Shown here one piece after another: positions 4,694 through 45,060 of a DNA stretch of 64,000 nucleotides. The notes beneath the pieces were generated by a model. It was not told where the DNA came from. It saw only the letters and a program-made list of their open reading frames with translations, and did no database searches. The position numbers and the translations under genes were made by a program. The stretch is from Nitrospirota bacterium. GTDB lineage: Bacteria; Nitrospirota; UBA9217. Location: contig CAWFSF010000006.1 in NCBI GenBank assembly GCA_963818475.1, positions 864,001 through 928,000 of the forward strand, written 5' to 3'. Positions within the stretch are counted from its first letter, which is position 1, and the number at the start of each line of letters is the position of its first letter.

Positions 4694-5986
4694 ATGAATG
4701 ATTCAGATGGTATCAGGCTGCAGGAATTTTGTCAATTCAAGAAAGAGATTCGCGGTTCGACGCAGTATTTGGTCGTAGGACTTGATGTCGCCAAGGAACG
4801 GCATAATGCCTTCTTTGGCACCGCGACCGGTAGGACACTGCACAAAGGGATGTTCTTTGATAATACGTACGATGGTTTCCAAAAGCTCCTGATCCAAACG
4901 GACGCGCTCAAGGTGCAGCATGGCCTGCGCAAAGTAGTTTTCGGACTGGAACCCACGGCCAATTATCATAAACCCCTGGGAGAATATCTCATCAAGGGCG
5001 GACACTTGGTTGTTCTGGTATCTGCTGCAGCCACGTCAAAGAACCGTGAGCTTATGGATGGCCGATGGGATAAGCACGACACCAAAGATGCCGCGAATGT
5101 CGCCGACCTAATCTCCCTGGGAAAATGCCTGTACTACGACTGCCCGGGGGAGGATCTGCGGTCCTTGCGGGGGCTGTTGTCCTTAAAGAAACGGCTCAAA
5201 AAAGAGGAGCACGGTCTCCGGGTCCGCATCCGCAATCAGCTTCTGGCCCAGTACTTCCCGGAAATGGACCAGCACTTCGGTTCGGTAGCGAGTCTGAACG
5301 TGGTCCAGCGATGCATGGATCCCTCGCTTATCTCCCTTATGGAATACGACGAGTTCTGCCGGACGGTATCGCCCGGCAAGGTGAATATGGCGCAGCAGCG
5401 GCGGCTTACGCAGATATGGCGGGCTGCCAAGCAGTCCATTGGCTGCATCGTCGGAGAAGCGGTGTCCGTGGAAGCACAGATCATGGTGATGGGACTTCAC
5501 CAAGTCCGGGAGACGATCAAGACCGTTGAGGACAAAATCGAGGACATCTGCCTGAAGTTTCCGGAGTACTCGTTCCTTCTCATGATTCCCGGTTTCGGTC
5601 CGGATGTGTCTTCCAAGGTCCTGGCTGCCATCGGCGATCCCGAACGCTTTACGAACGGTAAGCAGGTCTTGAAGATGGCCGGATTCGATCTGTGCGCGAG
5701 CCGAAGCGGAAAAACGTCAAATAGCGCCACACCGGTCATCTCCAAGCATGGGAAATCCGATCTCCGCTACGCTCTGTATCAGGCGGCGATCATCAGTTCG
5801 CTCAACTATAAAGAGTTCATCGTCTACCACACGAATAAGATAAAGGGACGGGAGCGGGAAAAAGGGATTGGCACCAAGATGCGGGTGAAACTGGCAGCAA
5901 AACTGTTGATCATCGCTTGGACGCTCATGAAGAAAAAAGAAACATTCGACCCGAAATACCTCAGCCAGGGGGGTAGTAAGGCATAG
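4694..5986 (+). CDS. IS110 DEDD recombinase/transposase
   Basis: VGLDVAK, GLEPTANY, KHDTKDA, IPGFG, SRSGK. Confidence 0.95.
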   Translation: MNDSDGIRLQEFCQFKKEIRGSTQYLVVGLDVAKERHNAFFGTATGRTLHKGMFFDNTYDGFQKLLIQTDALKVQHGLRKVVFGLEPTANYHKPLGEYLIKGGHLVVLVSAAATSKNRELMDGRWDKHDTKDAANVADLISLGKCLYYDCPGEDLRSLRGLLSLKKRLKKEEHGLRVRIRNQLLAQYFPEMDQHFGSVASLNVVQRCMDPSLISLMEYDEFCRTVSPGKVNMAQQRRLTQIWRAAKQSIGCIVGEAVSVEAQIMVMGLHQVRETIKTVEDKIEDICLKFPEYSFLLMIPGFGPDVSSKVLAAIGDPERFTNGKQVLKMAGFDLCASRSGKTSNSATPVISKHGKSDLRYALYQAAIISSLNYKEFIVYHTNKIKGREREKGIGTKMRVKLAAKLLIIAWTLMKKKETFDPKYLSQGGSKA

Positions 5987-6200: not shown

Positions 6201-6304
6201 ACGCATAGGTGAAGTGCGTCTTCAAGAAAAACCGTCAGTTATCGTATTGGAATTTCAGCGAAAGCAAGTTGCACTTGACAAGGGGGCTATAGGATGTCCC
6301 CGAG

Positions 6305-7254
6305 TCGGTTCTGACTACTTAGTATTTGACGAAAAAAATATCGAACATGCGCGAAAACTAATTATTCCACGTGAAAGCAATATGGAGCTTGCCAAAAATA
6401 GGCTAAACAATTTTGCAAATCATACCGGCCTAAAAACGATTTCGGCAAATAATAATGTAAATGTTACTGAACTATTGAACAGATATTTTAGTTGTAGCCC
6501 GCCGTTCGCCGAATCTGGGCAAAAGAAAAATGAGTTTCCCGATGCTATCGCATTAATGACACTAGAAGACTGGGCAAAGCAAAAGAACGTAAAAATTATA
6601 GCTGTTTCTTTAGATAAAGATTGGCACGATTTCGGAAAAGCATCTGAATATATAGACGTTACATCTGATTTAGCTGAAGCAATATCCATCTTCCAGCCTC
6701 ACAATACTGCTTTTGCATTTTGTATCAAACTAGCGAGCGATTTGATGACAACAGCGGGCGAAAAAATACGAGACCCCTTAGAATCGTATTTACGAAATTA
6801 TGTGGAAAATATGGATGTTTATGCCGAAGGAAGTTCTGCGTACTATTTTGAATCTGATTATGTGGAAACAAAATATAATACCTTTGAATTTTTAGTTAAC
6901 CATGAAGACAAGGCACAACTACGGCCGGTACAAATACAGGAAAATACGATTGTTGTAGAGTCTGAACTTACAATAAAGGCAGAAGCATCATCTGATTTTA
7001 CTTTTTCAGTTCATGATTCAATCGATAATGATGATATGAAAATTGGCGATGCAGAGGCTACACGCGACTTCGAATTCGACTCAAAGGTACTTATTACCTT
7101 AACGGGCGATTTCGATAAAGGACTCGATTTTGTAAAGGTAATAGCATTCGAGGTTTTATCTTCGCCAAAGTATGTAGATTTTGGAGAAATCGGCCCTGAG
7201 TGGGGTTACCATGAATTAGGTTATAATGAACTAGGTTATAATGAGTCGCAGTAA
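6305..7254 (+). CDS. PIN-domain (DUF4935-like) protein, probably 5'-truncated
   Basis: PPFAESGQKKNEFPDAIAL and VSLDKDW motifs; no N-terminal DT motif; AT-rich. Confidence 0.65.
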
Positions 7255-7343
7255 GTGCTGCATATAGGTCGATTGTCATCAAATGAGATTTTACCGCCGT
7301 GCTCTCCGCAAGGTGTCGCAGCACGTCAAAAAAGGAGGATAGC

Positions 7344-8360
7344 TTGCACATATTCAATAAACCGAGGGTCTTCTTATCTCATTCAGCAAAGGACAAGACT
7401 TTTATCGAAAGGCTATCGACAGACCTCCATAAATGTCAAATTGAACCGTGGTTGGATACTGAGGAAATCAGGGATGGTAAGTCCTGGCTAAAAGTTATAT
7501 TTGAAGACGGTATCCCGACCTGTGACAGTATCATGGTCTATTTTACCGAGAATTCTATTAATTCGAAAATGGTTGGGAAAGAAATTGACTCATCGCTTAT
7601 CACTCAATTAAGTGATAGTGGTATCGGGATTATTCCGTATGTCCAAAAAGCCGAACTGAGAAAGAAATTAAGGGTTGATTTGCAAACGCTGCATTGCCGT
7701 GAGTGGAATGATGCAAACTACCAAGATCTATTGCCATCTGTAGTTGCAGAGATATGGCATAGTTATATGGAAAGAACTGTAAGTACGGCTGTAGCTCAGG
7801 AGAGAAATAGGCGATTGGAATTGGAACTTGAAATTATTAAGCAACAAGAAAGATACGAATCGTCACCATTTACACCTTCAGAAGAAGCAGATTATAAATA
7901 TATCTATGATTCCCTAGGCCAAACGATTGACATTTGCTTCGGTTTATATGTCAAACACAACTCTTCATCTCTTGAAAAGCGTAAAGACGTCTTCCAATTT
8001 ACCTATCTCGACCTAGTGTTACTCAGTTTACAAAATGGTCAGGTGTATTGTGATTGGGACGAAATTAGGTACAGCTTAATAGGAATATTAAAAGAGCACG
8101 GATATCCGGAAGCTACTGAAGAAGACAGCAGGTATATTAATTCTAAAGACAACATGGGAGCGACATTCGTAGTTAACATAAGAACAATTGGACTAACGAA
8201 GAGAGTGCAGGCGGATGATGGTTTTGGATACCTTAAGCCGCAAGATGAATATTCTGAAAAAGCATTCAGATTTAATTATTGGCTAGGTTTTAATAACAAA
8301 TTGAAGAAAGAACTCACCTTTAAATATACTAAAGGTGAAGAATTGAAAATGAAGTTCTAA
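7344..8360 (+). CDS. TIR-domain protein
   Basis: VFLSHSAKDK..PWLDTEEI..SKMVGKEI; GGAGG RBS before TTG. Confidence 0.85.
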   Translation: MHIFNKPRVFLSHSAKDKTFIERLSTDLHKCQIEPWLDTEEIRDGKSWLKVIFEDGIPTCDSIMVYFTENSINSKMVGKEIDSSLITQLSDSGIGIIPYVQKAELRKKLRVDLQTLHCREWNDANYQDLLPSVVAEIWHSYMERTVSTAVAQERNRRLELELEIIKQQERYESSPFTPSEEADYKYIYDSLGQTIDICFGLYVKHNSSSLEKRKDVFQFTYLDLVLLSLQNGQVYCDWDEIRYSLIGILKEHGYPEATEEDSRYINSKDNMGATFVVNIRTIGLTKRVQADDGFGYLKPQDEYSEKAFRFNYWLGFNNKLKKELTFKYTKGEELKMKF

Positions 8361-12160: not shown

Positions 12161-12203
12161 TATTTTTAGGTAGTTGCCAAACATCCCACCAGGAGGCAGA
12201 AGA

Positions 12204-14069
12204 ATGCAAAACTTCAGACAGATCCTGAAAAAAGACAAGGCGCTCCGGGAAGAGGTCGAGCATCTGGTCGAAAGCGGGAGAAACCTGCCCATAGCCAGGC
12301 GGCAAGGCGTCAATTCTTCCACCATCAAAAAAGCTATGATCGGGCCGCACAACGAGCTGCCAAGGGCAGAGGCAATGGTCCAGCGGCATCTACGGCCAGC
12401 CCTGCTGATCCGGAACAACAAGATCGAAACCCCGGAGTCTCTGGAAATCCGCAAGCGTCTGCTTCCGTACATCGGGAAAGTGGAGAGCAGGGTTCCTTCC
12501 GTGGGCAGGATCGAGTTCGAGAAGATCGGCCGGCCCTTCGGCGGTACCGGTTGGATGATCAGCGAGGATGTCATCGTCACGAACAGGCACGTTGCCGCGC
12601 TCATGGCGACGAAAAAGGGAAACACCATAACCTTCATTAAGAACCAGATGGGCGAGACGGTCCAGGCATGCATTGATTTCAAGGAGGAGTTTCTCGGAAA
12701 TAATCTCGCTACTCCCGAATTCGAGATCCCCATCGAGAAAGTGCTGTTCATGACGGACAACATCAATACCCAGCCCGATATCGCCTTTGTCAAGATACGG
12801 AAGCATCCCCGGTTGCCCCAGCCCATCCCCATCAGCGATACTCCTCTTACAAAAGATCAGTTCGTCTCCGTGATAGGATATCCCGCGTACGATCCCGACG
12901 GGATCATCAGCCCCGGTGCAGCAACGGATGTGTTTCACGACATCTACGGTGTGAAGCGGTGCTCGCCGGGCGAGATCATGGAGTACGACAAGAACGGCTG
13001 GTATTTCTTCCATGACTGCACGACCCTGGGCGGGAACTCCGGCTCCGTGGTGCTGGACAATTCGACCGGGTATGCGGTCGGTCTCCATTTCATGGGAGAA
13101 GTGAAAAAGGAAAATTACGCCGTGAAAAGCACGGAGATCATCAAGTACCTCCGCAAGATAAAAACGTCCGTGTACATCAGATCGGTCCCCGGTGAAGTGA
13201 GGGCCAAGGAACGGGCCGGTGGTCCGGAACCGGAAGCGGCTCCGGAAAGTTACGACGACCGCAAGGGTTACCAGGTAGATTTCCTGGATCCCAGGTTTCC
13301 CGTGCCCCTCCCCGTCGTCTCCCGGAACAAACAGCAGGTGCTCACTTTCGGCAGCAACCGCAAAGGAGCGTCGGAGCTGAAATACCATCACTTCAGCGTT
13401 GTGATGAACAAGGAACGTCGCATGTGCTTCTTCAGCATCTGCAACATCGACGGGAAGCAGAGCAAGCGGGGTGTAGCGAGGACAGGCTGGAAATGGGACC
13501 CCCGGCTCCTGAAAAAGTACCAGATCAAGGACGAATGTTACGGCAATCCTCCCCACTTTGCCCGCGGTCACATGACCCGCAAGGAGGACCCCATCTGGGG
13601 AAGCCTGCAAACGGCGCGTGCTGCCTGCTCGGACACCTTTCACGTCACCAACGCAACTCCCCAGATGCAACCGTTCAATGCCCCGGTCTGGCTCGCGCTC
13701 GAAGATTATGCGCTCGAGAACGCCCGCCAGGATGATATGAAAATCACGGTGATCACGGGCCCCATCTTTCATGATGAGGATCCGGTCAGGTTCGATGTGC
13801 AGGTCCCTGTCGAGTTTTTCAAGATCATCGCGTTCATCCATGACGAGACCGGCAAATTATGCGCCACAGCCTACACCGTCTCGCAGGCGGATTATCTGAC
13901 CAACGAAGAGTTCGTATACGGGGAATTCAAGACGTACCAGGTCTCGATCAAGTCGATCGAAAACAAAACAGGGATCGATTTCGGCAAGCTTGCAACGGCA
14001 GATCCGAAAAAAGGGGAAGAGGCGCTTTCCACGGCGCTTATGAACGTCGAGGATATTGTTTTCAATTAA
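12204..14069 (+). CDS. Trypsin-like serine protease fused to DNA/RNA non-specific endonuclease
   Basis: TNRH, PDIA, GGNSGS; ARGH, TNATPQ, FNAPVWLALE. Confidence 0.9.
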   Translation: MQNFRQILKKDKALREEVEHLVESGRNLPIARRQGVNSSTIKKAMIGPHNELPRAEAMVQRHLRPALLIRNNKIETPESLEIRKRLLPYIGKVESRVPSVGRIEFEKIGRPFGGTGWMISEDVIVTNRHVAALMATKKGNTITFIKNQMGETVQACIDFKEEFLGNNLATPEFEIPIEKVLFMTDNINTQPDIAFVKIRKHPRLPQPIPISDTPLTKDQFVSVIGYPAYDPDGIISPGAATDVFHDIYGVKRCSPGEIMEYDKNGWYFFHDCTTLGGNSGSVVLDNSTGYAVGLHFMGEVKKENYAVKSTEIIKYLRKIKTSVYIRSVPGEVRAKERAGGPEPEAAPESYDDRKGYQVDFLDPRFPVPLPVVSRNKQQVLTFGSNRKGASELKYHHFSVVMNKERRMCFFSICNIDGKQSKRGVARTGWKWDPRLLKKYQIKDECYGNPPHFARGHMTRKEDPIWGSLQTARAACSDTFHVTNATPQMQPFNAPVWLALEDYALENARQDDMKITVITGPIFHDEDPVRFDVQVPVEFFKIIAFIHDETGKLCATAYTVSQADYLTNEEFVYGEFKTYQVSIKSIENKTGIDFGKLATADPKKGEEALSTALMNVEDIVFN

Positions 14070-14156: not shown

Positions 14157-14204
14157 GGGTCACTTCTTACCCTTGTCATAATTGTCCCACAAAGAAGTGA
14201 CCCC
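14157..14204. repeat. REP-like hairpin; empty equivalent of the intron insertion site
   Basis: GGGTCACTTCTT ... AAGAAGTGACCCC; second copy at 16781-16829. Confidence 0.85.
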
Positions 14205-14325
14205 AATTGTCCTTATGATGAGTGAGGTTTAAATGGCTGAAACACTTTAAATCAGGTGCAATATATCGGAAGCAACAATAACCCAGAGCAATTCCAGAAT
14301 TCAATTCTTGACAAGGAGGAGTTCT

Positions 14326-16659: not shown

Positions 16660-16829
16660 TTTCAATAATAGATATGAAGGCCAATGTATCAGACGTTTAT
16701 CATTCGAGATTTTGACTCTTGCCTTCCAATACAAATGGGCTTCGTAGCTACGTCTTTTGAGGGAGAACCGGTGTCATATAGGGTCACTTCTTTATCATTG
16801 TCATCATTGTCAAGATCAAAGAAGTGACC

Positions 16830-18742
16830 GTTCGCAGTAACAACTGATTATCTCGCGGGTTCAAGTCCCGCCCAAGGAGTTGTCCGTACACCTTGGTAGC
16901 ACGAGGGAGCGGCGTCTGAGCAATCAGAGGTCGTGAGTTCCCAAACGGCAAAGCTACAGGCCGCAGCGAAAGCGAACCTACACGTAGCCTCGTAACTTAT
17001 TCGGAGATGCCGACCTTGTGGTCAAATGGGGAAGGCCGATGCGCGCTGATTCAGACAACGGAATCGATCTGTGCGATCTCCCGGGGTAGCAGGGGCGGCA
17101 TGCAGCGGAAGATAAGCAGTCCAGTGCTGGAGACCCCATACAGTGATGTTAGAGGAACATCAACCGGTGCGTATAAGGAAACGAAAACGCACTGGGCTGT
17201 ATCGGGAGTCGGAGGGGTCCATAGTATCGTTTGAAGGTATGGGACAACATAACCCTGCCCGAGAAAAGGGACCCTGCTTTGTTCACGCAACCGAAGGAGA
17301 GAGGATGAGGGGATTGCAGAGATGCTAACAACCCCAGATACAATCAGGACACTCCAGAGGAAGCTCTACCGTAAGGCCAAGCAAGAACCGGCCTACCGCT
17401 TTTACGCGCTCTACGACAAGATACACCGGGCCGACATCCTCAGTCACGCCTACCATCTTGTCAGGGCCAACAAAGGAAGCGCCGGCATCGACGGCGTCAC
17501 CTTCGAGGCCATAGAGACCGGAGAAGGGGTAATCGCCTTTTTGGCGGAGCTGCAAGAAGCACTGAAGAGCAAGACCTATGCACCAAACCCTGTAAAGCGC
17601 GTCATGATCCCCAAAGGAGACGGCACAGAGCGTCCCTTGGGAATCCCGACCATTAGGGACAGGGTGGCCCAGATGGCCGTAAAACTGGTCATCGAACCGA
17701 TATTTGAAGCGGATTTTATAGACACCTCATACGGATTCAGACCCAAGAAGTCGGCCCATGATGCAATCGAAGACATATCGTATGCCCTTAACTGCGGTTA
17801 TACGGAAGTCATCGACGCCGATGTGTCCAGGTACTTCGACACCATTCCCCATGCCAAACTCATGGCCGTGGTCGCCGAGCGCATCGTTGACAGTGCGATT
17901 CTGCACATTATCCAGATGTGGCTCAAGGCCCCGGTTATGGAAGTGGACAAGGACGGAACGAAGCGCAACATCGGCGGCGGCAAGGCAAACACCAAAGGAA
18001 CACCGCAGGGCGGTGTCATCTCGCCGCTCCTGGCCAATCTCTATCTGCACCTGTTAGATAGGATATGGCATAAGAAGAAGCTTCAGTATAGGCTCGAAGC
18101 GCGTCTTGTCCGGTATGCCGACGATTTTGTCGTGCTGTGCAGAAAGGGAACTGAGCAGCCGATGGCGGTTGTGCGCCGGGTGCTCGAACGACTGGGACTT
18201 GTACTCAATGAGAACAAGACCCGCATGGTGAACGCCAAGCAAGAAGGCTTCAACTTCCTTGGATTTGAACTTCGTATGGGGAAAAGTCGGAGAACGGGCA
18301 ACCTTTACCCCCTTATACAACCGTCACGAAAAGCCCTGAAGAAGATCAAAGACAGCGTTACCGCTCTTACACACAGGCGGATGACGCCGAAGCCGCTTAC
18401 TATGATAATCGAAGATATCAATACCGCCCTCCGGGGCTGGGTCGGGTACTTTCATTACCGCAATAGCAGCAAGGCGTTCAATCGTCTCAAGTTTCATGTG
18501 GAAGCGCGAGTGCGCACGCATCTGCGAAAGCGGCATAAGATCAAAAGCAGGGCAGCGGGGTTTACCAGGTTCACCAACAGGTCTTTGTACGAGAAGTATG
18601 GGCTCTATAAAGTGCCGACGACAGCGGGCTGGCTGAAGGCGCATGCCTTGCGGTGAAGAACATCGGAAAGCCGTGTGCGGGAAAACTGCATGCACGGTTT
18701 GATGAGGGAGGGCTGGTCAATACGACCAGCTCTCTACTCTAC
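16830..18742 (+). mobile_element. Group II intron inserted at GTGACC/CC of a REP-like hairpin
   Basis: 5' GTTCG; domain V aagccgtgtgcgggaaaactgcatgcacggtttgatgagg; 3' ctactctAC; flanks rejoin to match 14191-14207. Confidence 0.9.
17322..18656 (+). CDS. ltrA: Group II intron reverse transcriptase/maturase without endonuclease domain
   Basis: RPLGIPTIRDR, GTPQGGVISPLLAN, RYADD, LRGWVGYF. Confidence 0.95.
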   Translation: MLTTPDTIRTLQRKLYRKAKQEPAYRFYALYDKIHRADILSHAYHLVRANKGSAGIDGVTFEAIETGEGVIAFLAELQEALKSKTYAPNPVKRVMIPKGDGTERPLGIPTIRDRVAQMAVKLVIEPIFEADFIDTSYGFRPKKSAHDAIEDISYALNCGYTEVIDADVSRYFDTIPHAKLMAVVAERIVDSAILHIIQMWLKAPVMEVDKDGTKRNIGGGKANTKGTPQGGVISPLLANLYLHLLDRIWHKKKLQYRLEARLVRYADDFVVLCRKGTEQPMAVVRRVLERLGLVLNENKTRMVNAKQEGFNFLGFELRMGKSRRTGNLYPLIQPSRKALKKIKDSVTALTHRRMTPKPLTMIIEDINTALRGWVGYFHYRNSSKAFNRLKFHVEARVRTHLRKRHKIKSRAAGFTRFTNRSLYEKYGLYKVPTTAGWLKAHALR

Positions 18743-19020
18743 CCAATAGTTCCCAAAGTTGGCCCGATGCACAAACTGGTGTTAGTGGGGCGTAGATCAG
18801 GAGAAGGGCAGCTGGAACATTATTTCCCCAGAGTGAACGCCTCATCCAGCTTGACCGAAGGTATCAAGAAATCCACGGATGATTTGCTTTCCAGCTATGC
18901 GATGGGTATTTGGTCAGCCGTACGGGGTCATAACTGTCGGCATGTCCTCCCATTATTCGTCAAACATCGCGTTTCCTCCTTTACCGATCGATGTATCTCC
19001 TTAAAACCCGAAAAAACACC

Positions 19021-28175: not shown

Positions 28176-31100
28176 ATGTTCAGGCACGGAAAATCGAGAA
28201 TACTTGCGGTGGCAGCAGTTGCGGTCATGAGCGCGGTAATCTCCGTCACGGTCTTGGGTTCATCACCCTCGCCGGTGACGGTCAAGCTCACGCCTTCCCT
28301 GGTGTCGGTCGACACCTCGGCGTTGGCGCCGAAGCTGGCCCAGGCCGAAATGGACGCAGTCTGGCATCTCTTCGATCGGGACACGGACGCCGCCTACATC
28401 CCGATGGAAACGGCCCGGGTAACGGTAAACCTGCCGCAGTCGTCTGCCCTAAGCCAAGTCCGTGTTTATGGCGCGTCCTCGTATCAACTCAACCTGTACC
28501 GTGATAATAACGGCGCATGGGAGCCTGTGCCCTCCCTGACCGGCGTTGATCTCACGGTTCTGGGTGCGGCCTGGAACAGGTTGAATATCACGGAACCCTT
28601 TTCCACATCCCAGCTTTTGTTCGAATTCGTTCCGCAGGGGAACGTAACCGCCGGCCTGCGTGAGGTCGAGATCTGGGGTCCTGAGGCAGCGTCCGGGGAC
28701 AAGAGTTGGGAGTATGTGACGCTCGAAGGTATCCGTACACCTCAGGACATGGTCAATATACTAGCCCGCCCGGCTTCCCATATTCTGGAGTTCTCGGCCG
28801 CTCCCTCTGAATTGTCCGTACCCGAAGGAGGAACATCAGCCGTCGCCATCGGTCTCATTCAGAATCCCGCGTTGTTCAAACGCGCCTATATCCTCTATGA
28901 CGGCTACAATCTGGTCAGTTCGGTGAGCATCCAGCGCAGGATCAACAGCTTATCGTGGACCGGCGGTTTCGCGATTTCTCAGCCCGCGGACACCGTGCCT
29001 TCCTGGTCCTCTTACCTTGAAGAAATAAACCCGGCCTGGCTCGTTCAAGGAGAAAACAGGATCGAATTCCGGACAGCGAGCGGCACAGCAACCATCCGCG
29101 GTCTCAGGCTCATTGTCGAAACCGACAGCGGATGGAACCTCGTTTCAGCAGTAAGTGCAGCGGCTGTATATGACGGAGACACTTCGACTGCGTATACCAT
29201 TGCCGCGTCAGCAACCGACCCGTCGATTCAACTAAGTTTCGAACGCACGGTCCAGCCTGACATCCTGAAACTTCATAGCGCAGGTCCGATGAATCTGACC
29301 GCAGGACTGCAGTATCTGAACGGAGCAACGTGGCAGGATGTGAAAGCAGGCTGGCAGCTCAATCTTTCTACTCTCAAAGCCGGCTGGAACGATATAACTA
29401 TTCCCGGCAAGGTGACGACGCAGGCCCTTCGGTTGGTGTTTAATACAGCAAGCCTCAAGATAAAGCCCGGTGTGGGCCTCGGTGCGATCAACGAAGTGCG
29501 GGTGTCCGCGGCCCCTGTCGGCCCTGTCCCGGCTACTCCCCGGATCGTGATCAGCTATCCGCGCAACGGAGAATATTTCGGACGGACCGCATATATCCAA
29601 GGCTTTGCAACGCCCGCAGTTGATACGGCCGGTAATTCCGCCCGGTGCAGTGTCGAAGGCAAGGACGGCCAGCGAACGGTGCCGGACGGGTCTTTCAGCC
29701 TCTCCCTTACCAAGGACGAAACGCATTTCTACGACCAGGCGGACAACGATCCGTGGCAGCCGGTGGCGCAGTCGACATACGACGGCCAGATAGGCGCCAT
29801 GCAGAACATAGTCCTGAATAAAAATTCAGGGGTCCAGACAGATCCCGACCCAAACGGCGAGAGCAGGAAAAACGCGCCCTTTACCGATAACAGGGACCAT
29901 CACACGGAAAAAGTATCGCCCGGCCAGGCAAAGAAGATCCAGTACGGGGGCGTGACCCTCGACATTCCGCAGGGCGCAGTTGATCAGGACACGGACATTA
30001 CGATCGTTCCGTTGAATGAAACGGATCTTGCCCATTACGATCCGGGCATGATCAACGTCACCTATCCGGCAGCCGGTTACCGCTTCCTGCCTCACGGCAT
30101 GAAGTTCAAGAAGCCGATCAACATTTCGTTCGGATACGCGAAGCAGCTCTTTGTGGCAGGCCAGACCGACAACGACGTCAACATGTATTATTACGACGAG
30201 ACGCTGCTGCGATGGCAGCAGCTGAACCGCGTAAAAGCAGACCCGGCTACGTCCCAGGTCACGGCCCTGTCCGATCATTTTACCGACATCATCAACTCCA
30301 CCCTCGTGGTGCCCGAGCATCCGCAGGCATTGTCGTTCAACCCGAACTCGATCAAGGACATCAAGGCGGCCGATCCGACCGCCAATGTGAACCTCATCGA
30401 ACCGCCCCAGGCAAACAGCAGAGGCACGGCCAACCTGAGCTACCCCATCGAGGTGCCGCAGGGACGCAATAAGCTTCAGCCCAACCTTGCCGTTCAGTAC
30501 AACTCCTCGGGCGGAAACGGCTGGATGGGCATGGGCTGGGACCTCCCGATGCAGGCGATCACGGTCGATACCCGCTGGGGCGTCCCGCGCTACAGCTCGA
30601 GCAAGGAGACCGAGACCTATACAATCGACGGGGAACAGCTTTCGCCGGCCGCCCACCGCGGGCCCTTTGTAGATCGTGTCCTCGCGCAAAGAATTTTCCA
30701 TACCCGGGTGGAAGGTCAGTTCCGCAAGATCATCCGGCACGGGAGCTCTCCGTCCAGTTACTGGTGGGAGGTCATCGACAAGAACGGCACGCGCTATCTT
30801 TACGGCGGAACGAATGGTCCGACAACTGACGCCACTCTTAGAGACGAAAACGAAAATATTTTTATGTGGACACTCCGTGAAGTCCGGGACACGAACAACA
30901 ACTTCATACGCTATTATTATGCTCACGTGAAAGACCCCGGTTTTCCGGGCGGTCTCCCGGGGGAGAATCTCTACCTCCAGGGCATAACCTATACCGGCAA
31001 CGGGACAAAGGAAGGCCCCTACACCGTCACCTTCACGCGCGACCAGACGCGGATAGACAAACAGAGTGATGCGCGCGGCGGGTTCAAGCGAGTGACCGGC

Positions 31101-34100
31101 GATCTTCTGACCAAGATCGAAATCTATCTCGGCGGCACATACCAGGACGGCGAGGTGAAGGGCGGCAACTTCATCCGGAGCTACGAATTCGACTACAATC
31201 ACAACGCCTATGGCGACGGCAGTGAGGGCACGGCTTTTTATAAAACGCTCCTGACATCGATCAGTCAGTACGGAGCGAAGCACGGTCTCTTCAATAAGCA
31301 CGAGTTCACCTATTATGATGACGCGCGTAAACTCGATGGAACGTACAAGGGTTTTGCATCGACCGGATGGGATGCCAGGGGAAGCGGTACTATCACTGCC
31401 GGAGGGATTCCCGGGACCTGGGGCGCTGCGAGCGCGCTCGGCGGTGACACGAGCAACGGCGGGGGAGGTCATTTTCATCTTGGCCTCGGTATCGATACAG
31501 ACACAAGCACTAAAAATGTGACTATTGGTTTCAAAATCGGCTTCAACCAGACCGAAGGCGATGCGTTGGTCGCGATGGTGGACATAGACGGCGACGGTCT
31601 GCCCGACAAGGTGTACAACAATGGCGGCTATTTTTATCAGAAGAATATGTCCGGTCCGCATGGACCCGGCGCCAAGTTCGGTCCTCCTGTCTCGATCGGA
31701 ATCCCGGGTATCTCCCATCAGAGTGTGACCTCCACGACGTGGGGTGCTGAACTCTATATCTATGTGCCGATGATGTACGATCAGAACAGGGCCGAGACCG
31801 AGAACGATACTTACTTAATGGATGTGAACGGAGATGGACTTATCGACGTGGTGAAGGGGGGCATGGTTTACTTCAATCACATCGTGAATGAAGTTCCCGT
31901 TTTCGAATGGAACAGCGTGGCAACGCCGGTTCCGATCGGCAAAAGCGTGATCGACACAAATGGCCTCCTGCCGGACCGCAGTGCCGAGGAAGCCGAGCGT
32001 GAGGAAAAATTCCCGCTTCTCGATACGGTACGCCGCTGGGTGGCACCTTACGACGGCACCGTGAAAATCGATGCCCCGGTGACTCTTATCAAGGACCCCA
32101 AGAAAAAACCGGACTATAAGGACGATGGCGTACAGGTCGCGATACAGCTGGAAGGAGCGGAATTGTGGTCCACGCAGACGATCTCGGTAGAGCCCACAGA
32201 TCCGAGGTCCGCGCGGATCCTTGCCAACGACTACGATACAGTGCATACGCCGGTCGGGGTGGACAGCGTTCCGGTCCATCGCGGAGACCGGCTCTACTTC
32301 CGGGTGCAATCCGTGTACAACGGCCTCTATGATCAGGTCTCGTGGGACCCCATAATCACCTATCTTGCTGGTGACACGGCCCGCACGGACGCGAACGGTC
32401 TTACCGAGTATGTCTATCAGGCCTCGAAGGAGTTCACGCTTGCAGGCCGCCGGGGCAAGCTCACGATGCCGATTACCGGCACCGTGCACCTGGGCGGAGA
32501 ATTGAAGAAGACTAAAACGACCTCGGATGACGTTTCGATCTCGATCACGCAGAACGGAACAGAAGTGTACAGAAACACTGTCCCCTGGGACGAGACCGGC
32601 ACCTTCAACGTCTCCCAGGATATTAGCGTTAAGCAGAAAGACGAACTCGTGTGGCGCGTCCTGGCCGATTCGCAGGTCGATGCGCAGTTCGATGCCTCGA
32701 ATGTAACATTCAAACCTAGCATGTACTATAGCGCGGCCGACGGATATGATACGGTAACTGATAATGACGGCAAGCCGTTCATCAGTATCGATCCGCCCTA
32801 TGAGATGGACCTCTATCCGGTCAACACGCTTACCGCCCCGCAGGAGTTCCTCGTAACCGCGGCGACCGGGACCCTGATCGCCGTGCCTTCTCTTGAAATT
32901 AATTCCTCAATCGCTGTTCCCAGGGAGGTGGCCTTTACTGCGAAGCGCACAGGTGCATTGCTCGGGAAGGGGATCATCACGATCACCAGGGATGTTGATG
33001 GCAATCTTGTCGTTTCAGCCCCGACGCTTACATTTACTGTCGATCAGGGCGATAAGCTTTTCTTTGATTTCAGCACGCGCGACCTGACCCTTGCCGCCCA
33101 GGTAATATCGAGCAGCGTCGCCGTACATGATGAAAAGGGCAACTTTATTGATGCTCCGAGCGCCTTCCACAGCGCTGCTGCGGAAGATGTTTTCCCGGTT
33201 CCGTTCCGAGGTTGGGGCGTCGTCGGATATAACGGCAACAAGCCGCGCGACACTCAACCGATCGACCAGTCTCTCCTGGTGTTGAACGACTCTTACGATG
33301 TGAACAACGCTCGGGTCTATCCTTTCAGGCCGGTTCCTGTAGACGAAGCCTGGGGCGGGATCGACAAGAGCGCCTGGATCAAGAAAGGTGTGGTCAGCTC
33401 CTCGCGACTGGGCCTCAAAGAGATACCGTTGCTGCATTCCGATAAATTTAGCTCTTCCACAGCACCTTCGCGCATCTCGAAATCCACCAATGATTCCGGG
33501 TCGCTCATTGTCAGCGCCAGCAAAGGCCAGAGCGAAAGCCTGGTCGACTTCCAGGACATGAACGGTGATGCCTACCCCGACGTGATCGGTGGCGGCGGCG
33601 TTCAGTATACAGCGCCGACCGGAGAACTCAACGGCGGCGCGAGCGGAGGGCTCGGCTCTGCCCGGTTAAGCCGCAACGAGAGCTTCAATGTGAGACACCG
33701 ATGCGGCAGGCAACATCGCGACGTCGATTGCTAACGGCAAGGGTAACGTAGCGGCCAGCGGACAAGCCTCTGCGGGCGGCGGCTCGCAGGGCACCGACAT
33801 GCCGAGGATCGGCATGAGCGCCAACAAGGGCAACGGCACCTCAGATACCGAATACGACCTTATCGACGTCAACGGTGACGGTCTGCCGGACAAGGTGTTC
33901 AAGGGCGGCACGGTCATGCTGAACCTGGGTTACCAATTCAAGGGAGACCGGGGAGGCGTGGGAGCCGTCAACAGCGGCAGCACGGACAACGGCGGCGTAA
34001 GCATGGGTTTCCAGACCGACTGGTACAGCATGGGCGGCGGCATGAATGTCGGGCTGGACAACACGGTAAGCAGTGAAACCTACGCCGATATCAACGGCGA

Positions 34101-37100
34101 CGGGCTTCCTGACAAACTTAGTCCGGGCCTCGTGATGCTCAACACTGGCAGCGGATACAAGGCCATAACCTGGCCTGGTCTCGGCGAAGTGGCGCGTGAT
34201 GAGCACGTCTCCTATGGCGGCGGCGTCTACTTCACGTTTGGATTCACCATCTACGACATCATCAAGATCACGTTCAATATCGGCGTGAATATGACGAACA
34301 ATATTGGACGTCCCGAAGTGGCCTTCCGCGACATTGATGGCGACGGATATGTCGATCAACTGACCTCTACTTCAGCCGAACAATTATCAGTGGGTCGAAA
34401 TCAGATCGGCCGCACCAATATCCTTAAAACCGTGAAACGTCCGCTCGGCGGCAGCATCAGCGATCGAATACACGCGCGACGGCAATACCTATGACATGCC
34501 CCAGAGTCAGTGGACCCTTACGAAGTCGACCCTGACCGACGGCAGGAAGAACACGTACGAGACAGAGTTCGCATACAAAAACGGGTACAAGGACCGTTTT
34601 GAACGGGACTTCTACGGCTTCGAGACCGTGATCGAGAAACATGCGCCCGGTAAGTTCGACGTTTATAATAAATCGATCGAGCGCTGGATCGTGCAGACCT
34701 TCAATAATCGCGACTTCTATTTGAAGGGACTTCTGCTGGATTCGAGGACTACCGACAAGAACATGACGCATATCTGGGCCAGGACCGTCAACGAGTATAC
34801 GCTCATGCCTGTAGCGGGCTTCGACTACACTCAGTTCCCCGCCCTTTCCAGGACGGACACTTACTTCTATGACGGCAATGACAGCTCCAGCGCGAAAGAA
34901 GATGGCTTCAAGAAGAGTACCTACCAGAGGTTTGATTATGATCTCTTCGGGAATGTCAGCAAGTTCTGGGATTTCGGGGAGTTTTATCCGACGAACGATA
35001 TAACCGACGATATGCGCGCAGACATTGATTACTACAACGACCCGATCAAATACATCATCAAACCGCGGGAGATCAAGGTCTACGGAACCGCGAACAACAG
35101 ATCTCTTCGCTGGAGAACCTCAGGCTACGATGCAGCGGGCAATATGACAAGTCTCACGCTCCATAATACCGGTACGCCAGCGTCTGTCTCTACCATGTCC
35201 TATGATGATTACGGCAACATTCAGACCATCATAGATCCAGTTAATTACGCACTTACCTACAGCTACGATCAGACGACGTCAACGTATGTAACCGGCATCA
35301 TCGACAACTTTGCGACACCCTATTATTCCTCTGCCTCCTATAACCCGCTTTACGGGCAGATGCAGACGTCCGTTGACCTGAACATGAACATGGAGGCGAG
35401 GGGATACGACGAGTTCGGCAGGCTGATCTGCGTGTACGGACCGTATGATACGGTTCCTGTAGATCCCAACTCGTGCTCAGGCTCTCCGACCATAACCTTT
35501 GCTTACACGGCGCCTTTGGTCGCTTCGGATAATGACCTGAACGCTCCGGTCCATGCGGTTACGGTCAATAAGGCAATCTCGGCTAAGGGCACGAGCCCGA
35601 TCAACATCAAGACTGTCACGTACGCGGACGGCTTGAAACGCATCATTCAGACCAAGAAGGATGCAGATGTGTACGATGTAACGACAGGTCAGCCTGCCTA
35701 CGGTATGACCATCTCTGGTCTCGTCGCCTTCGACGAACTTGGCCGTGTTACGAGCCAGGGCCAGCCTGAATTCGAAGCTGGCTTCAATGAGGCATTCTCG
35801 GAGCTCGCAGCAACGAACCCGACATACTTCTCCTACGATATTCTCGATCGGACAACGCAGCTGCTTACACCTGATGACAAGGGGGACACGGACAGCGCCC
35901 GACCGGGCAAGTTCGCAAAAATAACGACCACGTATACGTTCGACTATTTCAACGGTAACCTCTACGCCAAGAGTGTTGTTGTAGATCCCGAAGGCAACCA
36001 TGTAATGGGCGCAAATTTCAGAGGCACCAAGGAAAGCTACCAGGACGTGGATGACCGGATCGTCGGCGTGGTCGAGTACAACAACGGCCATCTCATCAAC
36101 ACCGCTTACACCTACGATCCGCTTGGTCAGATCACCTCAGTAACGGACAACAAAGGCAATACCACCACAGTTGCCTATGACCAGGTCGGCAACAGGACTG
36201 AGATCAACAACCCGGATGCCGGCAAGACCACATACGGTTATGACGCTAACGGCAACATGACGAGCAAGCAGAACGGAAATAGCCAGAACATAGCGTACAA
36301 GTACACCTTCAACCGGTTAACTGACATAACGTACCCGCAAAGCACGACGGTGCATTATGACTACGGCCAAATGAATGAAGCCTTTAATCGCGCTGCAAGG
36401 ATCAAGCAGGTCACCGACGAGTCAGGCACCGAGTGGCGGTACTACGGCAGACTGGGCGAGACAATTCGTGAAGAGAAGATGGTGAATGCCCATACCCCGG
36501 CCGTGCAGAAGAAGAAGTATACCACTGACTACGTCTTCGACTCCTTCGGCAGAATGTGGGAGATGACCTATCCCGACGGCGAAACGCTGCACTACGCCTA
36601 CGACAAGGGCGGTCTGCTCAAGGCTGCCTGGGGCGAGAAGACGAGCAACAGGTATAACTATGTGAACAATCTCTACTATGACAAGTTTGCCCAGAGGGTC
36701 TATATCGAGTATGGGAACAAGACGAAAACAATCTACACCTACAACGACAAGACCAGAAGACTGGCAACACTCGACACGAATCTCAAGGGCGGGCAGTACA
36801 TACAGAAGCTGGGCTACACCTACGACCTTGTCGGCAACGTCAAAACTCTGCTGAACAACATCGCCATACCCACGAGCACTGCGCTCCCGGCAGGCCCTGT
36901 TCATCAAGAGTTTCTCTATGATGATCTTTACCAGATTACGAATGCAGAGGGTGGCTACACGTACAATGAGCACCCGAGGACTTCTGATGGCAAAACTACT
37001 ATCAGTCCGAATAAGTGGAATAATTATCACAACGATTTCACTTATGACACTATCGGCAACATGACCCAGAAGGTCCAGGTCAACCAGATCATTCAGCCGT

Positions 37101-38659
37101 CGACTACCGCGCTCCTTCCGAAGAAGACGAACTACGTGCTCAACTATGCTTATGATGCGAGCAAGCCGCATGCCGTGATTGACGATGGAGCAAAAACGTA
37201 CTCCTACGATCCGGCAGGCAACATGACCGGCTGGCAGGACAAGAACTCGGGCCAGAAGCGGACGATCAAATGGAACGAAGAGAACAGAGTTAAGGAGATC
37301 GACGACAACGGCAAGGCCACGTACTTCCTTTATGATGACGCCGGTGAACGCGTCGCCAAGAGAGGCCAGTACGGCGAGACGATCTATATCAACCGGTTCT
37401 ATGCAATAAAGAACGGAGAACTCGGAACCAAGCACGTTTTCGCCGGCGAGACGAGAGTGCTTTCGAAGGTGGTAAAGACACCGCCTACGACAACGGCAAA
37501 CAGCTCGACAACTACATCCACAACCTCGAATGTGACTTCAAGCACGACATCGACAATACCCGGCATAAACGGGTTAGACAACGGCAGGGGTAAGAAGCTC
37601 GGTATCATCAAGCGCCTGGGAGACGGTTATGTGTCAGGCATCACCCAGCCAGTCGAGAAAGATGAGTTCTATTACCATACAGACCATCTCGGCTCGAGCA
37701 ACATGATCACTGACGCATATGGCGATGTGTATCAGCATCTCGAGAACTTCCCGTATGGTGAGAGCTGGATCGAGGAAGGTGGCAGCCATGGTGGTAATCT
37801 GCCGGGATACAAGTTCACCGGCAAGGAGCTTGATCCGGAGACTAATCTGTACTATTATGGTGCACGGTACTATGATCCAGTCTTGAGCAAGTGGATTAGT
37901 GCGGATCCGATATTGGGAAAATATCTCAATGGTAAAGGAGAGAACTCGATTTATCAACCCGAAGTCCTGGCCCTCTTTAGTTATGCGCACCTTAACCCTA
38001 TAAAACTGATTGATCCAGATGGCAATGAACCTAATAACGCACAAGCTATTACGTGGCAACAAGCCAGGCAAATTATAATAAGCAATTCGCGAACTACAGG
38101 AAAAACAATAACACTTCAAAATCTTCTATATCTTCAAGGTGCTCGCGGCGGGAAAAAAGTCGGTCCTTTCGGTGGCGATCGCGGTGGTCGGTATGTTTGG
38201 ACTGCAAAACGAGGCTGGATGGATCTCGGTCATTTCTTTCAAGTGGCAGGAAAGGCTCAGGAAAAATTGGGATCAGCTGGGCGATTGACTGCAAAATGGA
38301 CATATCAAGGTAGGGCTGCTTTCGAAGCTGGACTTTTTGCAATGACCAGTTATGCTGAGAACAAGGATAAGGGGACAGCATCTTATAATTCCTATGAAGA
38401 TCGTCCGAGTAATAGAGCGGGAGCTGACTTTTTCTTGGGGTATTATGAGGGTGGACGGGGAAAGGAGTTACTGAAAAATCTGGACAAATTCTTCGAAGAT
38501 GCTGGAGCTGGTAGGCCTCAAGATGCAGCAAATTGGAAAAAGATGCAGGCAAGCCCTCGAACGAAACAATGGTTTGAGCAGAATGATTCGTATACGCCTA
38601 TGCTTAACCCGAGGCGAATGAATCCTCCCGTTTATCCACCAGATAAAGGAGGCCAATAA
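28176..38659 (+). CDS. Giant SpvB/TcdB-like FG-GAP and Rhs toxin (~3,490 aa), split by two +1 frameshifts (~33694, ~34459)
   Basis: Signal peptide, ZU5-like region, SpvB GTANLSYPIEVP..GMGWDL, DxNGDGLPD repeats, YD repeats, YYYGARYYDP, DPDG. Confidence 0.85.
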
Positions 38660-39225: not shown

Positions 39226-39233
39226 GCAATCTT

Positions 39234-40570: not shown

Positions 40571-40593
40571 GGGGTCATTGGGGTCACTTCTTT
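40571..40593 (-). repeat. Hairpin arm AAAGAAGTGACCCC (another empty intron-type site)
   Basis: ggggtcattggggtcacttcttt. Confidence 0.7.
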
Positions 40594-44807: not shown

Positions 44808-44952
44808 GTTGATACCTAGCAAGCATTTAGCTTGACAAACCCTACCCTATTTAAAATCACCCCATGCCACGCCAAGCGAGACTCGACGTACCCGGAGCCC
44901 TGTGGGGGCATTGGGGTCACTGAGATACAATGCAACATAAGTAACAACGTCC
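44808..44952 (+). mobile_element. Internally deleted (MITE-like) derivative of the Y1-transposase element
   Basis: ATG at 44864 encodes MPRQARLDVPGAL, followed by gagatacaatgcaacataagtaacaacgtcc matching 40269-40299. Confidence 0.8.
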
Positions 44953-45060
44953 GTACGCAGTAACAACTGATTATCTTGCGAGTTCAAGTCCCGTCCGAGG
45001 AATTGTCCGTACACCTCGATAGCACGAGGGAGCGGCATCTGAGCAATCGGGACGTATGGG
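44953..45060 (+). mobile_element. 5' fragment of a second group II intron
   Basis: gtacgcagtaacaactgattatc..gcacgagggagcggc..ctgagcaatc homologous to 16830-16925. Confidence 0.85.

Follow-up and report, generated by a model that had tools for sequence, protein, structure and literature searches.

A group II intron lodged in a palindromic repeat raises the question of whether the repeat is its target and, if so, how that target is read. The intron lies in the window (the whole stretch of 64,000 nucleotides of Nitrospirota DNA analyzed here), where an earlier note, made from the letters alone, had placed a group II intron with the non-canonical 5' end GTTCG. Both its boundaries and its unusual end were borne out. 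The full-length intron occupies positions 16830–18742 of the plus strand (1913 nt, 5' GUUCG ... CUCUAC 3'), as delimited by Rfam matches and an empty paralogous site. The core of Domain 1 (D1), at 16862–17096 (+), matches RF02005 (group-II-D1D4-6) with 66.1 bits against a cut-off of 49, and model positions 1–225 of 225 are matched. Domains 5 and 6 (D5 and D6), at 18666–18742 (+), match RF00029 with 54.2 bits against a cut-off of 40. According to this match and the alignment of relatives, D5 has a 5-nt loop, GAAAA, within GCGG-GAAAA-CUGC, and in D6 an A is bulged out 7 nt before the intron 3' end. The ORF at 17322–18656 (+) encodes the RT/maturase, a protein of 444 aa with a YADD motif and no endonuclease domain, which was recognized by Pfam (RVT_1, 1.5e-38; GIIM, 3.8e-16) and TIGR04416 (396.8 bits, cut-off 300). 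The intron RNA minus this ORF measures 578 nt. With its D1, D5-D6, RT/maturase, and EBS1–IBS1 pairing, the stretch 16830–18742 has the anatomy of a mobile bacterial group II intron.

The sequence across its two ends is ...aaagaagtgacc|GTTCG...CTCTAC|ccaat, and excision of the intron in silico joins AAAGAAGTGACC to CCAAT, which gives the 17-mer AAAGAAGTGACCCCAAT. Comparison with the empty site sets the boundaries to within one base, a C being present on both sides, and the G...AC consensus resolves this ambiguity. Measured against the standard boundaries, 5' GUGYG ... AY 3', the 3' AC fits, whereas the 5' GUUCG differs. The GTTCG end is identical in all six copies of the intron in the genome, and the 59 relatives carry GTTCG (32), GTACG (25), or GTATG (2), and never GTGYG. 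The non-standard position 3 is a lineage-wide deviation and no error. For the alpha–alpha' kissing pair, a first register (GUUGUC/GACAAC) was rejected, being unconserved in relatives; UCCG/CGGA is a possible alternative pair that is invariant and hence uninformative.

The site of insertion is the foot of a hairpin. The DNA fold of the occupied target at 16781–16829 (+) comprises a 5' arm GGGTCACTTCTTT, a 24-nt loop, and a 3' arm AAAGAAGTGACC, with -13.5 kcal/mol and z = -6.1; the last stem base, a C, now lies at 18743. A paralogous hairpin whose GTGACC|CCAAT site is intact and empty is located 2.6 kb upstream of the intron, at 14157–14207 (+). Its unbroken 17-mer at 14191–14207 equals the joined flanks of the intron, and the stretch 14157–14203 folds as single-stranded DNA with z = -4.1. 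The earlier note had named a REP-like repeated hairpin as the target and had listed two empty sites nearby. The empty paralogue confirms the repeated hairpin and the first of these sites, whereas the second stood only in part: the third 17-mer AAAGAAGTGACCCCAAT, at 40577–40593 on the minus strand and ~290 nt downstream of the Y1 gene at 39299–40291, is unbroken and identical, but it does not fold (z = +1.1) and hence represents a lone arm instead of an empty hairpin. The window holds 7 occurrences of the 12-mer AAAGAAGTGACC, at most one mismatch being allowed, where 0.26 would be expected, and 0 of 100 shuffles reach 7. Three full copies of this hairpin family are present in the genome. A scan for terminator-like sites did not flag the target hairpins, and no T run was found 3' of the insertion.

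The 5' exon is read by EBS1 (GGUCAA, 17020–17025, +), which lies in the terminal loop of an Id3-type hairpin drawn by Rfam; as DNA, GGTCAA is complementary to TGACC, and it pairs with exon positions -1 to -6. This pairing, proposed from one sequence, is upheld by covariation over 59 distinct relatives, in which 329 of 354 EBS1–IBS1 cells are paired versus a mean of 278 and a maximum of 295 in 2000 shuffles, none of which reaches 329. The five inner pairs are all formed in 52/59 relatives and all six in 38/59. Compensatory changes are found at -3:193 and -5:195, the former being A-T in 27 relatives and T-A in 24, and the covarying EBS1/exon combinations include GGUCA/UGACC, GGACA/UGUCC, and GGACG/CGUCC. 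On the other side of the insertion point, +1 is C at 51/54 sites and +2 is C at 32/54. Positions -9 to -11 are A/G-rich, also at sites without a hairpin. For an EBS2–IBS2 contact, exon positions -14 to -1 were compared by mutual information with 500 intron columns, and nothing convincing emerged beyond EBS1. The best intron column for exon -7 to -14 reached an MI of 0.47 with 59% paired, values of an alignment scan only, and the candidate EBS2 internal loop is almost constant while the exons vary.

The choice of target was followed through the copies in this genome and the related loci, the latter mostly from metagenome bins. The six genome copies (1913–1914 nt, 99.95–100% identity by blastn) have different flanks, and the only common element is NGACC|C. 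A strong hairpin is found at three of the six. Of the remaining three, one lies within a terminator-like hairpin that follows a tRNA gene, and the other two interrupt plain ...CTGACC|C sites. All six copies lie on the G-rich strand according to GC skew, a placement that fits insertion into the lagging-strand template and supports it. With its near-identical copies in different flanks and the empty paralogous site, the intron looks active and retromobile. REP-type hairpins, GGGG(T/A)C...G(A/T)CCCC, have as their conserved foot the target motif shared across the lineage, NG(A/T)CC|C(C). The target always reads N-G-(A/T)-C-C|C(C) because EBS1 keeps GG-N-C-N lineage-wide. Aligning the flanks of homologous introns, a check proposed in the earlier note, revealed that the same end, G(A/T)CC|CC, is reused, but most of the sites lack a strong hairpin.

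A stem of 10 bp or more, without gaps and anchored on the insertion point, is present at 14/61 sites of relatives versus 5/1470 control positions, and an MFE test that calls for at least 12/13 foot positions paired upstream is positive at 13/50 sites versus 5/551 controls; in both tests the controls are random flank positions, unmatched for the IBS motif. Roughly a quarter to a third of relatives thus have a strong hairpin and about two thirds do not, with control positions at ~1%. The sole hairpin test matched for the motif is the genome-wide comparison of NGACC|C sites. This genome has 8162 such sites, 51 of them where a hairpin of 10 bp or more has its foot, and the intron occupies 3/51 hairpin-foot sites versus 3/8111 others, a ~160-fold difference. 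The empty hairpin-foot sites (48/51) include 8 copies of another family ending in GGTGACC|C. The consensus of the no-hairpin sites, AGACCTGACCCC, is repeated 17, 4, 1, 6, and 0 times in five genomes, the 17 copies being in G006, against 0, 0, 3, 0, and 0 for its reversed control in the same five genomes.

Hairpins of this kind are linked with Y1 transposase genes. A RAYT-like Y1 (HUH) transposase gene of 330 aa is encoded at 39299–40291 (+); its protein exceeds the cut-off of Pfam Y1_Tnp (49.4 bits, cut-off 23) and stays under that of NCBIfam REP_Tyr_transpos (68.2 bits, cut-off 80). The gene is flanked by two REPs that are inverted partners, CTTGGGGACGTTGTTACTTACATTGC upstream (approximately 39231–39256, +) and GCAACGTAAGTAACAACGTCCC downstream (40279–40300, +), the latter overlapping the stop codon, and this family has 12 matches in the genome with at most one mismatch. 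The repeat flanking this gene, GGGGACGTTGTTAC..., is related to but different from the window's hairpin family, which was not found beside a Y1 gene in this genome. Inverted GGGGACGTTGTT.../...AACAACGTCCCC repeats flank the Y1 paralogues nearest to the window's gene, and TAGGGTCAGG-type repeats flank paralogues that are more distant. Enterobacterial REPs have a GTAG motif, instead of which the foot here has GGGG(T/A)C. A further REP remnant, ATAAGTAACAACGTCC, at 44937–44952 (+), is broken after GTCC and lies beside the 3' remnant of a Y1 gene. A 96-nt 5' fragment of a related intron (44953–45048, +; 90.6% identical by blastn, 5' GTACG) is inserted exactly at ...AACAACGTCC| of this REP, as its flanks reveal.

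Y1 genes flanked by inverted repeat copies are present in this genome and in G002, G003, G004, G005, and G006. Seven of 80 related loci have a Y1 gene within their ~2.5-kb flanks versus ~0.3 expected, an expectation derived from ~1.5 Y1 matches per Mb over 11 genomes. The intron-carrying repeat is itself the Y1-flanking repeat in four cases (L043 in G004, L013 in G005, L004, and L049). In the complete genome G006, 6/10 inspected Y1 loci are bordered by GGGGTCA repeats on one side and by TGACCCC repeats on the other, and some of these Y1-flanking repeats agree with intron target arms from other genomes. Copy numbers per repeat family are low, about 3–17 and not hundreds, and most Y1 proteins are long forms of about 220–330 aa. 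The earlier suggestion of an intron lineage specialized for Y1-associated repeats is supported, since relatives enter Y1-flanking hairpins elsewhere, with the caveats that the window's own family was not found beside a Y1 gene and that 3/6 copies have no strong hairpin.

The best explanation, which we consider probable, is that the intron targets the foot of REP hairpins via EBS1–IBS1 pairing and that RAYT-associated repeats serve as its landing sites. The EBS1 loop (GGUCAA) would pick the target by forming 5–6 bp with the 5' exon (NUGACC), and one further pair would read the first 3' exon base (C). EBS1 would compete with the 5' hairpin arm for the 3' arm because it has the same sequence as the 5' foot. 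Reverse splicing may take place at replication forks, on the lagging-strand template while it is transiently single-stranded, a route that an intron without an endonuclease would need. Opening of the foot would leave the upper stem just upstream of IBS1, as in group IIC targets; recognition of the hairpin structure itself is putative. REP-type repeats scattered between genes would offer many conserved, harmless landing sites, and motif sites without a hairpin are also used, at a far lower rate per site. A broader proposal, evenly poised between acceptance and doubt, is that a lineage outside class C has acquired an EBS1 imitating the 5' foot of the REP hairpins associated with RAYTs, with the repeats as its homing niche in Nitrospirota, Desulfuromonadales/Geobacter, Syntrophales, and Beta- and Gammaproteobacteria.

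The same targets could arise through homing by sequence alone, a rather unlikely reading in which recognition is confined to the 6–7 nt covered by EBS1 and EBS3, possibly along with some protein contacts, and the excess of REPs reflects a foot that contains the motif and the survival of intergenic insertions. It agrees with the half of the copies here and most of the relatives that have no strong hairpin, with the alignment scan, in which no EBS2 or other covarying contact was found, with the A/G-rich -9 to -11 positions even at no-hairpin sites, and with a no-hairpin consensus that is itself a repeated sequence. However, the difference in occupancy in this genome was obtained with the motif held constant, EBS1 keeps GG-N-C-N while its variable positions follow different REP families, and survivorship cannot by itself account for an identical landing position in the foot. 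The association may also be one of shared descent, if hairpin and intron move or duplicate as one DNA unit, for example through the Y1 transposase or recombination. Near-same target arms carry introns in distant taxa (L031/L074, L053/L056, and copy C6:271794/L001), and targets are often part of a tandem cluster of repeats, next to empty copies, as joint movement would predict; nevertheless, we regard it as improbable. In the window's family, loop and flanks are not the same at the two occupied hairpins, yet the introns inside them share 99.95% identity; the same repeats also occur without an intron, and three copies here lie in unrelated sequence. Moreover, EBS1 variants correspond to the REP variants that host them, a match that calls for target choice by pairing.

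An ordinary group IIC (class C) intron inserting after intrinsic terminators or attC sites is the most improbable of these readings. In its favor, the protein has no endonuclease domain, EBS2 was not found in the scan, a hairpin lies upstream of the insertion point, and the solved structures closest to the RT are IIC RTs (7uim, 1.2e-51; 6ar1, 2.5e-49). The lead over a IIB RT in these PDB matches is, however, small (1e-51 vs 3e-44), and the insertion is inside the stem foot, not past the stem, at a site with no T run that is not terminator-like. The IIC EBS1–IBS1 pairing is described as 3–4 bp in the text available of PMC7923331, in contrast to 5–6 covarying bp here, and a 5-nt D5 loop is given as a IIE/IIF trait in the section at hand of PMC3753933. 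The comparison with group IIC drawn in the earlier note holds for behavior only and fails for the RNA traits (5–6 bp EBS1 and 5-nt D5 loop). The RNA is not a typical IIC intron.

The reading of REP hairpin feet as landing sites places the intron between several known systems. As in group IIC, including IIC-attC, there is no endonuclease domain, EBS2 is undetected here, EBS1 reads a 5' exon beside a DNA stem-loop, IBS3–EBS3 serves the 3' exon, several intergenic copies occur per genome, and the target is a structured repeat and no unique homing site (PMC4424553 and PMC7161350, in the parts accessible). Unlike group IIC, five EBS1–IBS1 pairs form in 52/59 relatives and six in 38/59 instead of 3–4, insertion is 1–2 nt inside the 3' stem foot and not downstream of the stem, the hairpins are neither terminators nor attC sites, a strong hairpin is found at 13/50 sites only, the D5 loop has 5 nt, and D1 matches Rfam D1D4-6. 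Class E/F (IIB-like) introns, so far as the sections seen of PMC3753933 and PMC3552965 describe them, share the 5-nt D5 loop, the lack of an endonuclease domain, a long structured D6, an ORF-less RNA of 450–700 nt (578 nt here), and hosts such as Geobacter, Pelobacter, and Nitrosomonadales. They differ in the EBS2–IBS2 drawn there, none having been found in the alignment scan here. For IIB-type introns, according to the portion consulted of PMC7923331, reports of a role for upstream secondary structure were lacking as of 2021.

Repeated extragenic palindromes are also landing sites of ISPpu9, ISPpu10, ISPsy8, IS1397, and other REP-targeting ISs, and of a group II intron of Pseudomonas putida KT2440, which is REP-associated in 2/9 copies (Tobes and Pareja 2006, Table 1; PMC1525189, in the part available). 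Those ISs are mostly DNA transposons, whereas here the target position is fixed in the foot and EBS1 covaries over many genomes; the table row for KT2440 gives the REP association ratio alone (PMC1525189). In the literature covered, outside which most subscription journals lie, no description of group II introns specialized on REP/RAYT repeats was found beyond this P. putida entry. The Y1 genes between inverted palindromic repeats, with their own variant for each paralogue and repeats scattered intergenically, resemble REP/RAYT systems, but the families here are small, the proteins are mostly long, and the window's protein is under the NCBIfam cut-off.

Three types of natural target are distinguished for group II introns in the text at hand of PMC4424553, namely specific homing sites, terminator hairpins, and integron attC sites, and REP hairpins, if this targeting is real, would be a fourth. 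Structure-linked targeting would then exist outside class C, possibly by convergence, and a retroelement would exploit non-autonomous repeats that belong to a single-strand DNA transposase. This would tie together two mobile systems, each of which relies on single-stranded hairpins at the replication fork and acts on them in the lagging-strand template. Entry of the intron may thus disable a repeat, or intron and repeat may spread together between phyla. A compact endonuclease-less intron whose 6-bp EBS1 covaries and which may require a hairpin would be a good test case for the origin of IIC-like target reading, and it may serve retargeting work.

Relatives were also seen outside these genomes. 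The plasmid-borne RTs nearest to the intron RT have at most 50.5% identity, and two of them (Nitrobacter and Mesorhizobium) belong to introns of another D1 family, RF02003. The Nitrobacter hamburgensis plasmid intron (RT 48.9% identical) was rejected as a member of the same lineage on account of this D1. In the contigs of a soil metagenome run that holds 7% of the sampled words, none bridges either of the hairpins, and two carry related introns with the 5' flank ...AACAACGT (loose end at 16828, agreement 0.75), which resembles the Y1 REP, a likeness that counts for little.

The stretch at 16830-18742 (+) of the window is a complete group II intron. The Rfam D1 model RF02005 (group-II-D1D4-6) matches at 16862-17096 (+; 66.1 bits, cut-off 49), and the D5-D6 model RF00029 matches at 18666-18742 (+; 54.2 bits, cut-off 40). 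Between these matches, an ORF at 17322-18656 (+) encodes a 444 amino acid protein with RVT_1 and GIIM domains, which scores 396.8 bits (cut-off 300) on TIGR04416, the group II intron reverse transcriptase (RT)/maturase family. No Pfam family matched past the maturase domain of this protein, which stops ~30 residues further on, indicating an intron protein without an endonuclease domain. The intron is flanked as ...AAAGAAGTGACC/GTTCG...CTCTAC/CCAAT (here and below, a slash marks the insertion point). The boundaries proposed in the earlier note hold: the 3' boundary is the exact end of the RF00029 match (18742), and the joined-flank 17-mer is found uninterrupted at 14191-14207 (+) and 40577-40593 (-). 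The intron has a C on either side, so comparison with the empty site leaves the boundaries uncertain by one base, an ambiguity settled by the G...AC consensus.

Both intact 17-mers had been proposed as empty sites, and they are identical in sequence. The first lies in a true paralogous hairpin, which is empty (14157-14207; single-stranded DNA fold z = -4.1, with z = -6.1 for the occupied hairpin at 16781-16829). The second is a lone arm without a hairpin (z = +1.1), and here the proposal stands for the sequence only. The 12-mer arm, with at most one mismatch, occurs 7 times in the window versus 0.26 expected. A simple scan for terminator-like signals flagged neither hairpin, and no T run follows either. 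The empty hairpin is directly downstream of a 631 amino acid ORF (12174-14069) with a trypsin-like peptidase domain and a non-specific DNA/RNA endonuclease domain. The 783 amino acid ORF that separates this hairpin from the occupied one matches nothing but CFI-box-CTERM, and that weakly.

An RT scan of genome contigs gave 80 related loci (62-97% identity) from Nitrospirota, Geobacter/Desulfuromonadales, Syntrophales, Nitrosomonadales, Rhodocyclales, Methylococcales, and other taxa. A 5' end was assignable for 62 loci. Together with the window copy, the 58 of them that had a 5' flank of 20 nt or more and 500 nt or more of intron sequence made up the 59 distinct sequences compared. The introns start with GTTCG (32), GTACG (25), or GTATG (2), and GTGYG was found in none of the 59; the non-canonical 5' end pointed out earlier is thus a lineage trait. 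The loop previously assigned as EBS1, which pairs with the 5' exon (IBS1), was confirmed by covariation. Intron positions 191-196 covary with exon positions -1 to -6, in combinations that include GGTCA with TGACC, GGACA with TGTCC, GGACG with CGTCC, GGATGA with TCGTCC, and GTAGCG with CGCTAC. Across the 59 sequences, 329 of 354 EBS1-exon cells are paired, a number reached by none of 2000 shuffles, which averaged 278 and peaked at 295. At pair -3:193, 27 sequences have A-T and 24 have T-A, and EBS1-IBS1 forms five pairs in 52/59 and six in 38/59. A mutual-information scan again placed the EBS1 columns as the top partners of exon -3 and -5; it gave no convincing partner for exon -7 to -14, and no EBS2 was seen. 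The 3' exon has C at +1 in 51 of 54 sites and at +2 in 32. These alignments show target choice by 5-6 bp of EBS1-IBS1 pairing together with C at +1. Within domain 6, the region after D5, approximately one relative in two has an additional structured insertion of ~60-80 nt (L005, L007, L011, L013, L017-L020, L025, L027, L033, L039, L066, L072, and others). These insertions are of two or three sequence types, such as ...GGCACCGYCAGACGAAAGGGRCGG..., and all of these relatives keep the 3' end CTACTCTAC.

Terminator and attC hairpins are the known targets of group IIC introns. Among solved structures, the RT is closest to IIC RTs (7uim, 1.2e-51; 6ar1, 2.5e-49), with a IIB RT close behind (6me0, 2.9e-44). 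D5 has a 5-nt loop and the ORF-less RNA is 578 nt long, and PMC3753933 gives such values as IIE/IIF traits. The intron clearly differs from typical IIC introns and probably belongs within or close to class F, a loosely defined class whose RTs served with g1 as the outgroup to class C in PMC4748821. Among plasmid-borne RTs, even the nearest have no more than 50.5% identity, and the two plasmid-borne relatives checked have the D1 family RF02003, unlike the RF02005 of the window intron. In Pseudomonas putida KT2440, an intron is described as REP-associated in 2/9 copies (Tobes and Pareja 2006, PMC1525189), and according to a 2021 paper (PMC7923331), upstream secondary structure had not been reported to play a role for IIB-type introns. 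A literature search with few subscription journals and no supplements found no described lineage tuned to RAYT-associated repeats.

The genome of the window (4.66 Mb, 7 contigs) holds six full copies with 99.95-100% identity and six fragments. NGACC/C is the sole sequence common to the flanks of the six. The window copy and C2:835848 (contig 2) occupy one hairpin family, and they are separate insertions because their loops and outer flanks differ. Copy C6:271794 is at the foot of another hairpin, GTCAAATCTTC...GAAGATTTGAC; one copy is within a terminator-like hairpin 3' of a tRNA gene, and two are at plain ...CTGACC/C sites. The GGGTCACTTCTTT hairpin has just three full copies in the genome, of which two are occupied. 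C6:266833-277945, outside the window, is a local pile-up with three full copies in 7 kb (gaps of 214 and 921 nt), where a 135-nt intron 3' fragment (C6:277811-277945) is preceded by the Y1-type REP motif GCAACATAAGTAACAACG. At C2:626325-626451, an 85-nt 3' part (D5-D6) of an 86%-identical intron, joined off the usual CC/CC position, begins 10 nt beyond the perfect palindrome ATTGGGGTCACCC-gtttaca-GGGGTGACCCCAAT.

In many relatives (for example L009, L015, L016, L043, L050, L053, L056, and L074), the intron is inserted at the 3' foot of a long hairpin with a 5' arm starting in GGGGTCA or GGGGACA. In an ungapped test, 14 of 61 insertion points anchored a stem of 10 bp or more, versus 5 of 1470 random flank positions. 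In rebuilt sites folded by MFE, at least 12 of 13 foot positions were paired upstream in 13/50 sites versus 5/551 controls. The main rival reading is that the hairpin is recognized by its sequence only, not its structure. The controls of both tests were random positions unmatched for the motif; therefore, all NGACC/C sites were counted on both strands of the window's genome with introns removed. Among 8162 such sites, 51 are hairpin-foot sites (stems of 10 bp or more), and 3/51 are occupied versus 3/8111 of the others, ~160-fold per site; at least three of six evenly spread insertions would fall at hairpin feet with a chance of about 5e-6. No intron occupies the remaining 48 hairpin-foot sites, among them 8 copies of another family ending GGTGACC/C. 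The consensus site without a hairpin, AGACCTGACCCC, is itself repeated 17, 4, 1, 6, and 0 times in five genomes (reversed control: 0, 0, 3, 0, 0). A strong preference for the G(A/T)CC/C(C) foot of Y1-associated hairpins is shown.

The repeated hairpin TTGTCACCTTTCTTGCGTGCCCAAGAAAGGTGACC/CAAAGAAG, at 8 places in the genome, has a GTGACC/C site like the window hairpin and is never occupied; its +2 is A, not C (C2:811266, C5:383330, C6:741571, and C6:1919696, for example, in coordinates with the six copies removed). Five tandem copies of AGACCTGACCCC with a 13-nt period lie at C1:226567-226630 of G006, a complete Nitrospirales genome.

Because EBS1 and the hairpin's 5' foot are identical in sequence, EBS1 would have to displace the 5' arm. 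This displacement would leave the remaining stem directly upstream of IBS1, a geometry described for IIC targets in PMC7161350. Introns without an endonuclease need single-stranded DNA and a primer at the replication fork, according to PMC4424553, and the present intron would presumably use both. Cumulative GC skew places all six copies on the G-rich strand (n = 6 only, three clustered), the orientation expected if insertion used the lagging-strand template.

Y1 is a RAYT-like HUH transposase flanked by palindromic REP-type repeats. The Y1 gene of the window (39299-40291; Pfam Y1_Tnp, 49.4 bits; NCBIfam REP_Tyr_transpos, 68.2 bits, under the cut-off of 80) has inverted repeats on each side, CTTGGGGACGTTGTTACTTAC... 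and ...GTAAGTAACAACGTCCC. Three paralogues (~65% identical) have variants of the same repeat, GGGGACGTTGTT... and ...AACAACGTCCCC, and more distant paralogues have TAGGGTCAGG-type repeats. At 44937-45048, a 3' remnant of a Y1 gene with its repeat is cut off precisely at the end of ...AACAACGTCC, where a 5' fragment (96 nt) of an intron with 90.6% identity begins. Y1 homologues were found in all five genomes searched. In G004, the repeat TTGGGGACGC(C/A)CTTAAAATTTCAACTT flanks a Y1 gene and makes the 5' arm of the L043 intron's hairpin. L004 is in an inverted copy of a Y1 gene's upstream repeat, with an empty copy adjoining. Ten Y1 loci were examined in G006: six lie between GGGGTCA... and ...TGACCCC repeats, frequently arrayed in tandem, and at a seventh the motif is present on just one flank. 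Among these repeats are some that agree with target arms of introns in other genomes, for example ATAAGTCAATA(C/A)TCATGCCTGACC and ATTAAATCGAGTCTGACC. The earlier idea of a lineage favouring Y1-associated repeats is strengthened by intron L013 of G005, 55 nt upstream of a Y1 gene inside that gene's own repeat, by the same arrangement in L049, and by Y1 genes in the flanks of 7/80 related loci (one a weak match) versus ~0.3 expected from ~215 kb of non-intron flank and ~67 Y1 matches in ~46 Mb.

A repeat family starting (AACC)TATAGGGTCACCCATTTAAAGGGCACCGTC (C2:850225, C3:271715, C5:167059, and C6:181834, for example) has the start TATAGGGTCAC in common with the window hairpin. Directly upstream of the window's Y1 gene, large ORFs at 28176-38659 (1852, 231, and 1387 amino acids; SpvB, TcdB_toxin_midN, FG-GAP, and RHS-repeat domains) form a Tc/Rhs-type toxin-complex-like cluster. 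Neighbouring ORFs at 6214-8360 with PIN_12 (346 amino acids) and TIR_2 (353 amino acids) domains, possibly a defence pair, adjoin an IS110-family transposase gene (4694-5986).
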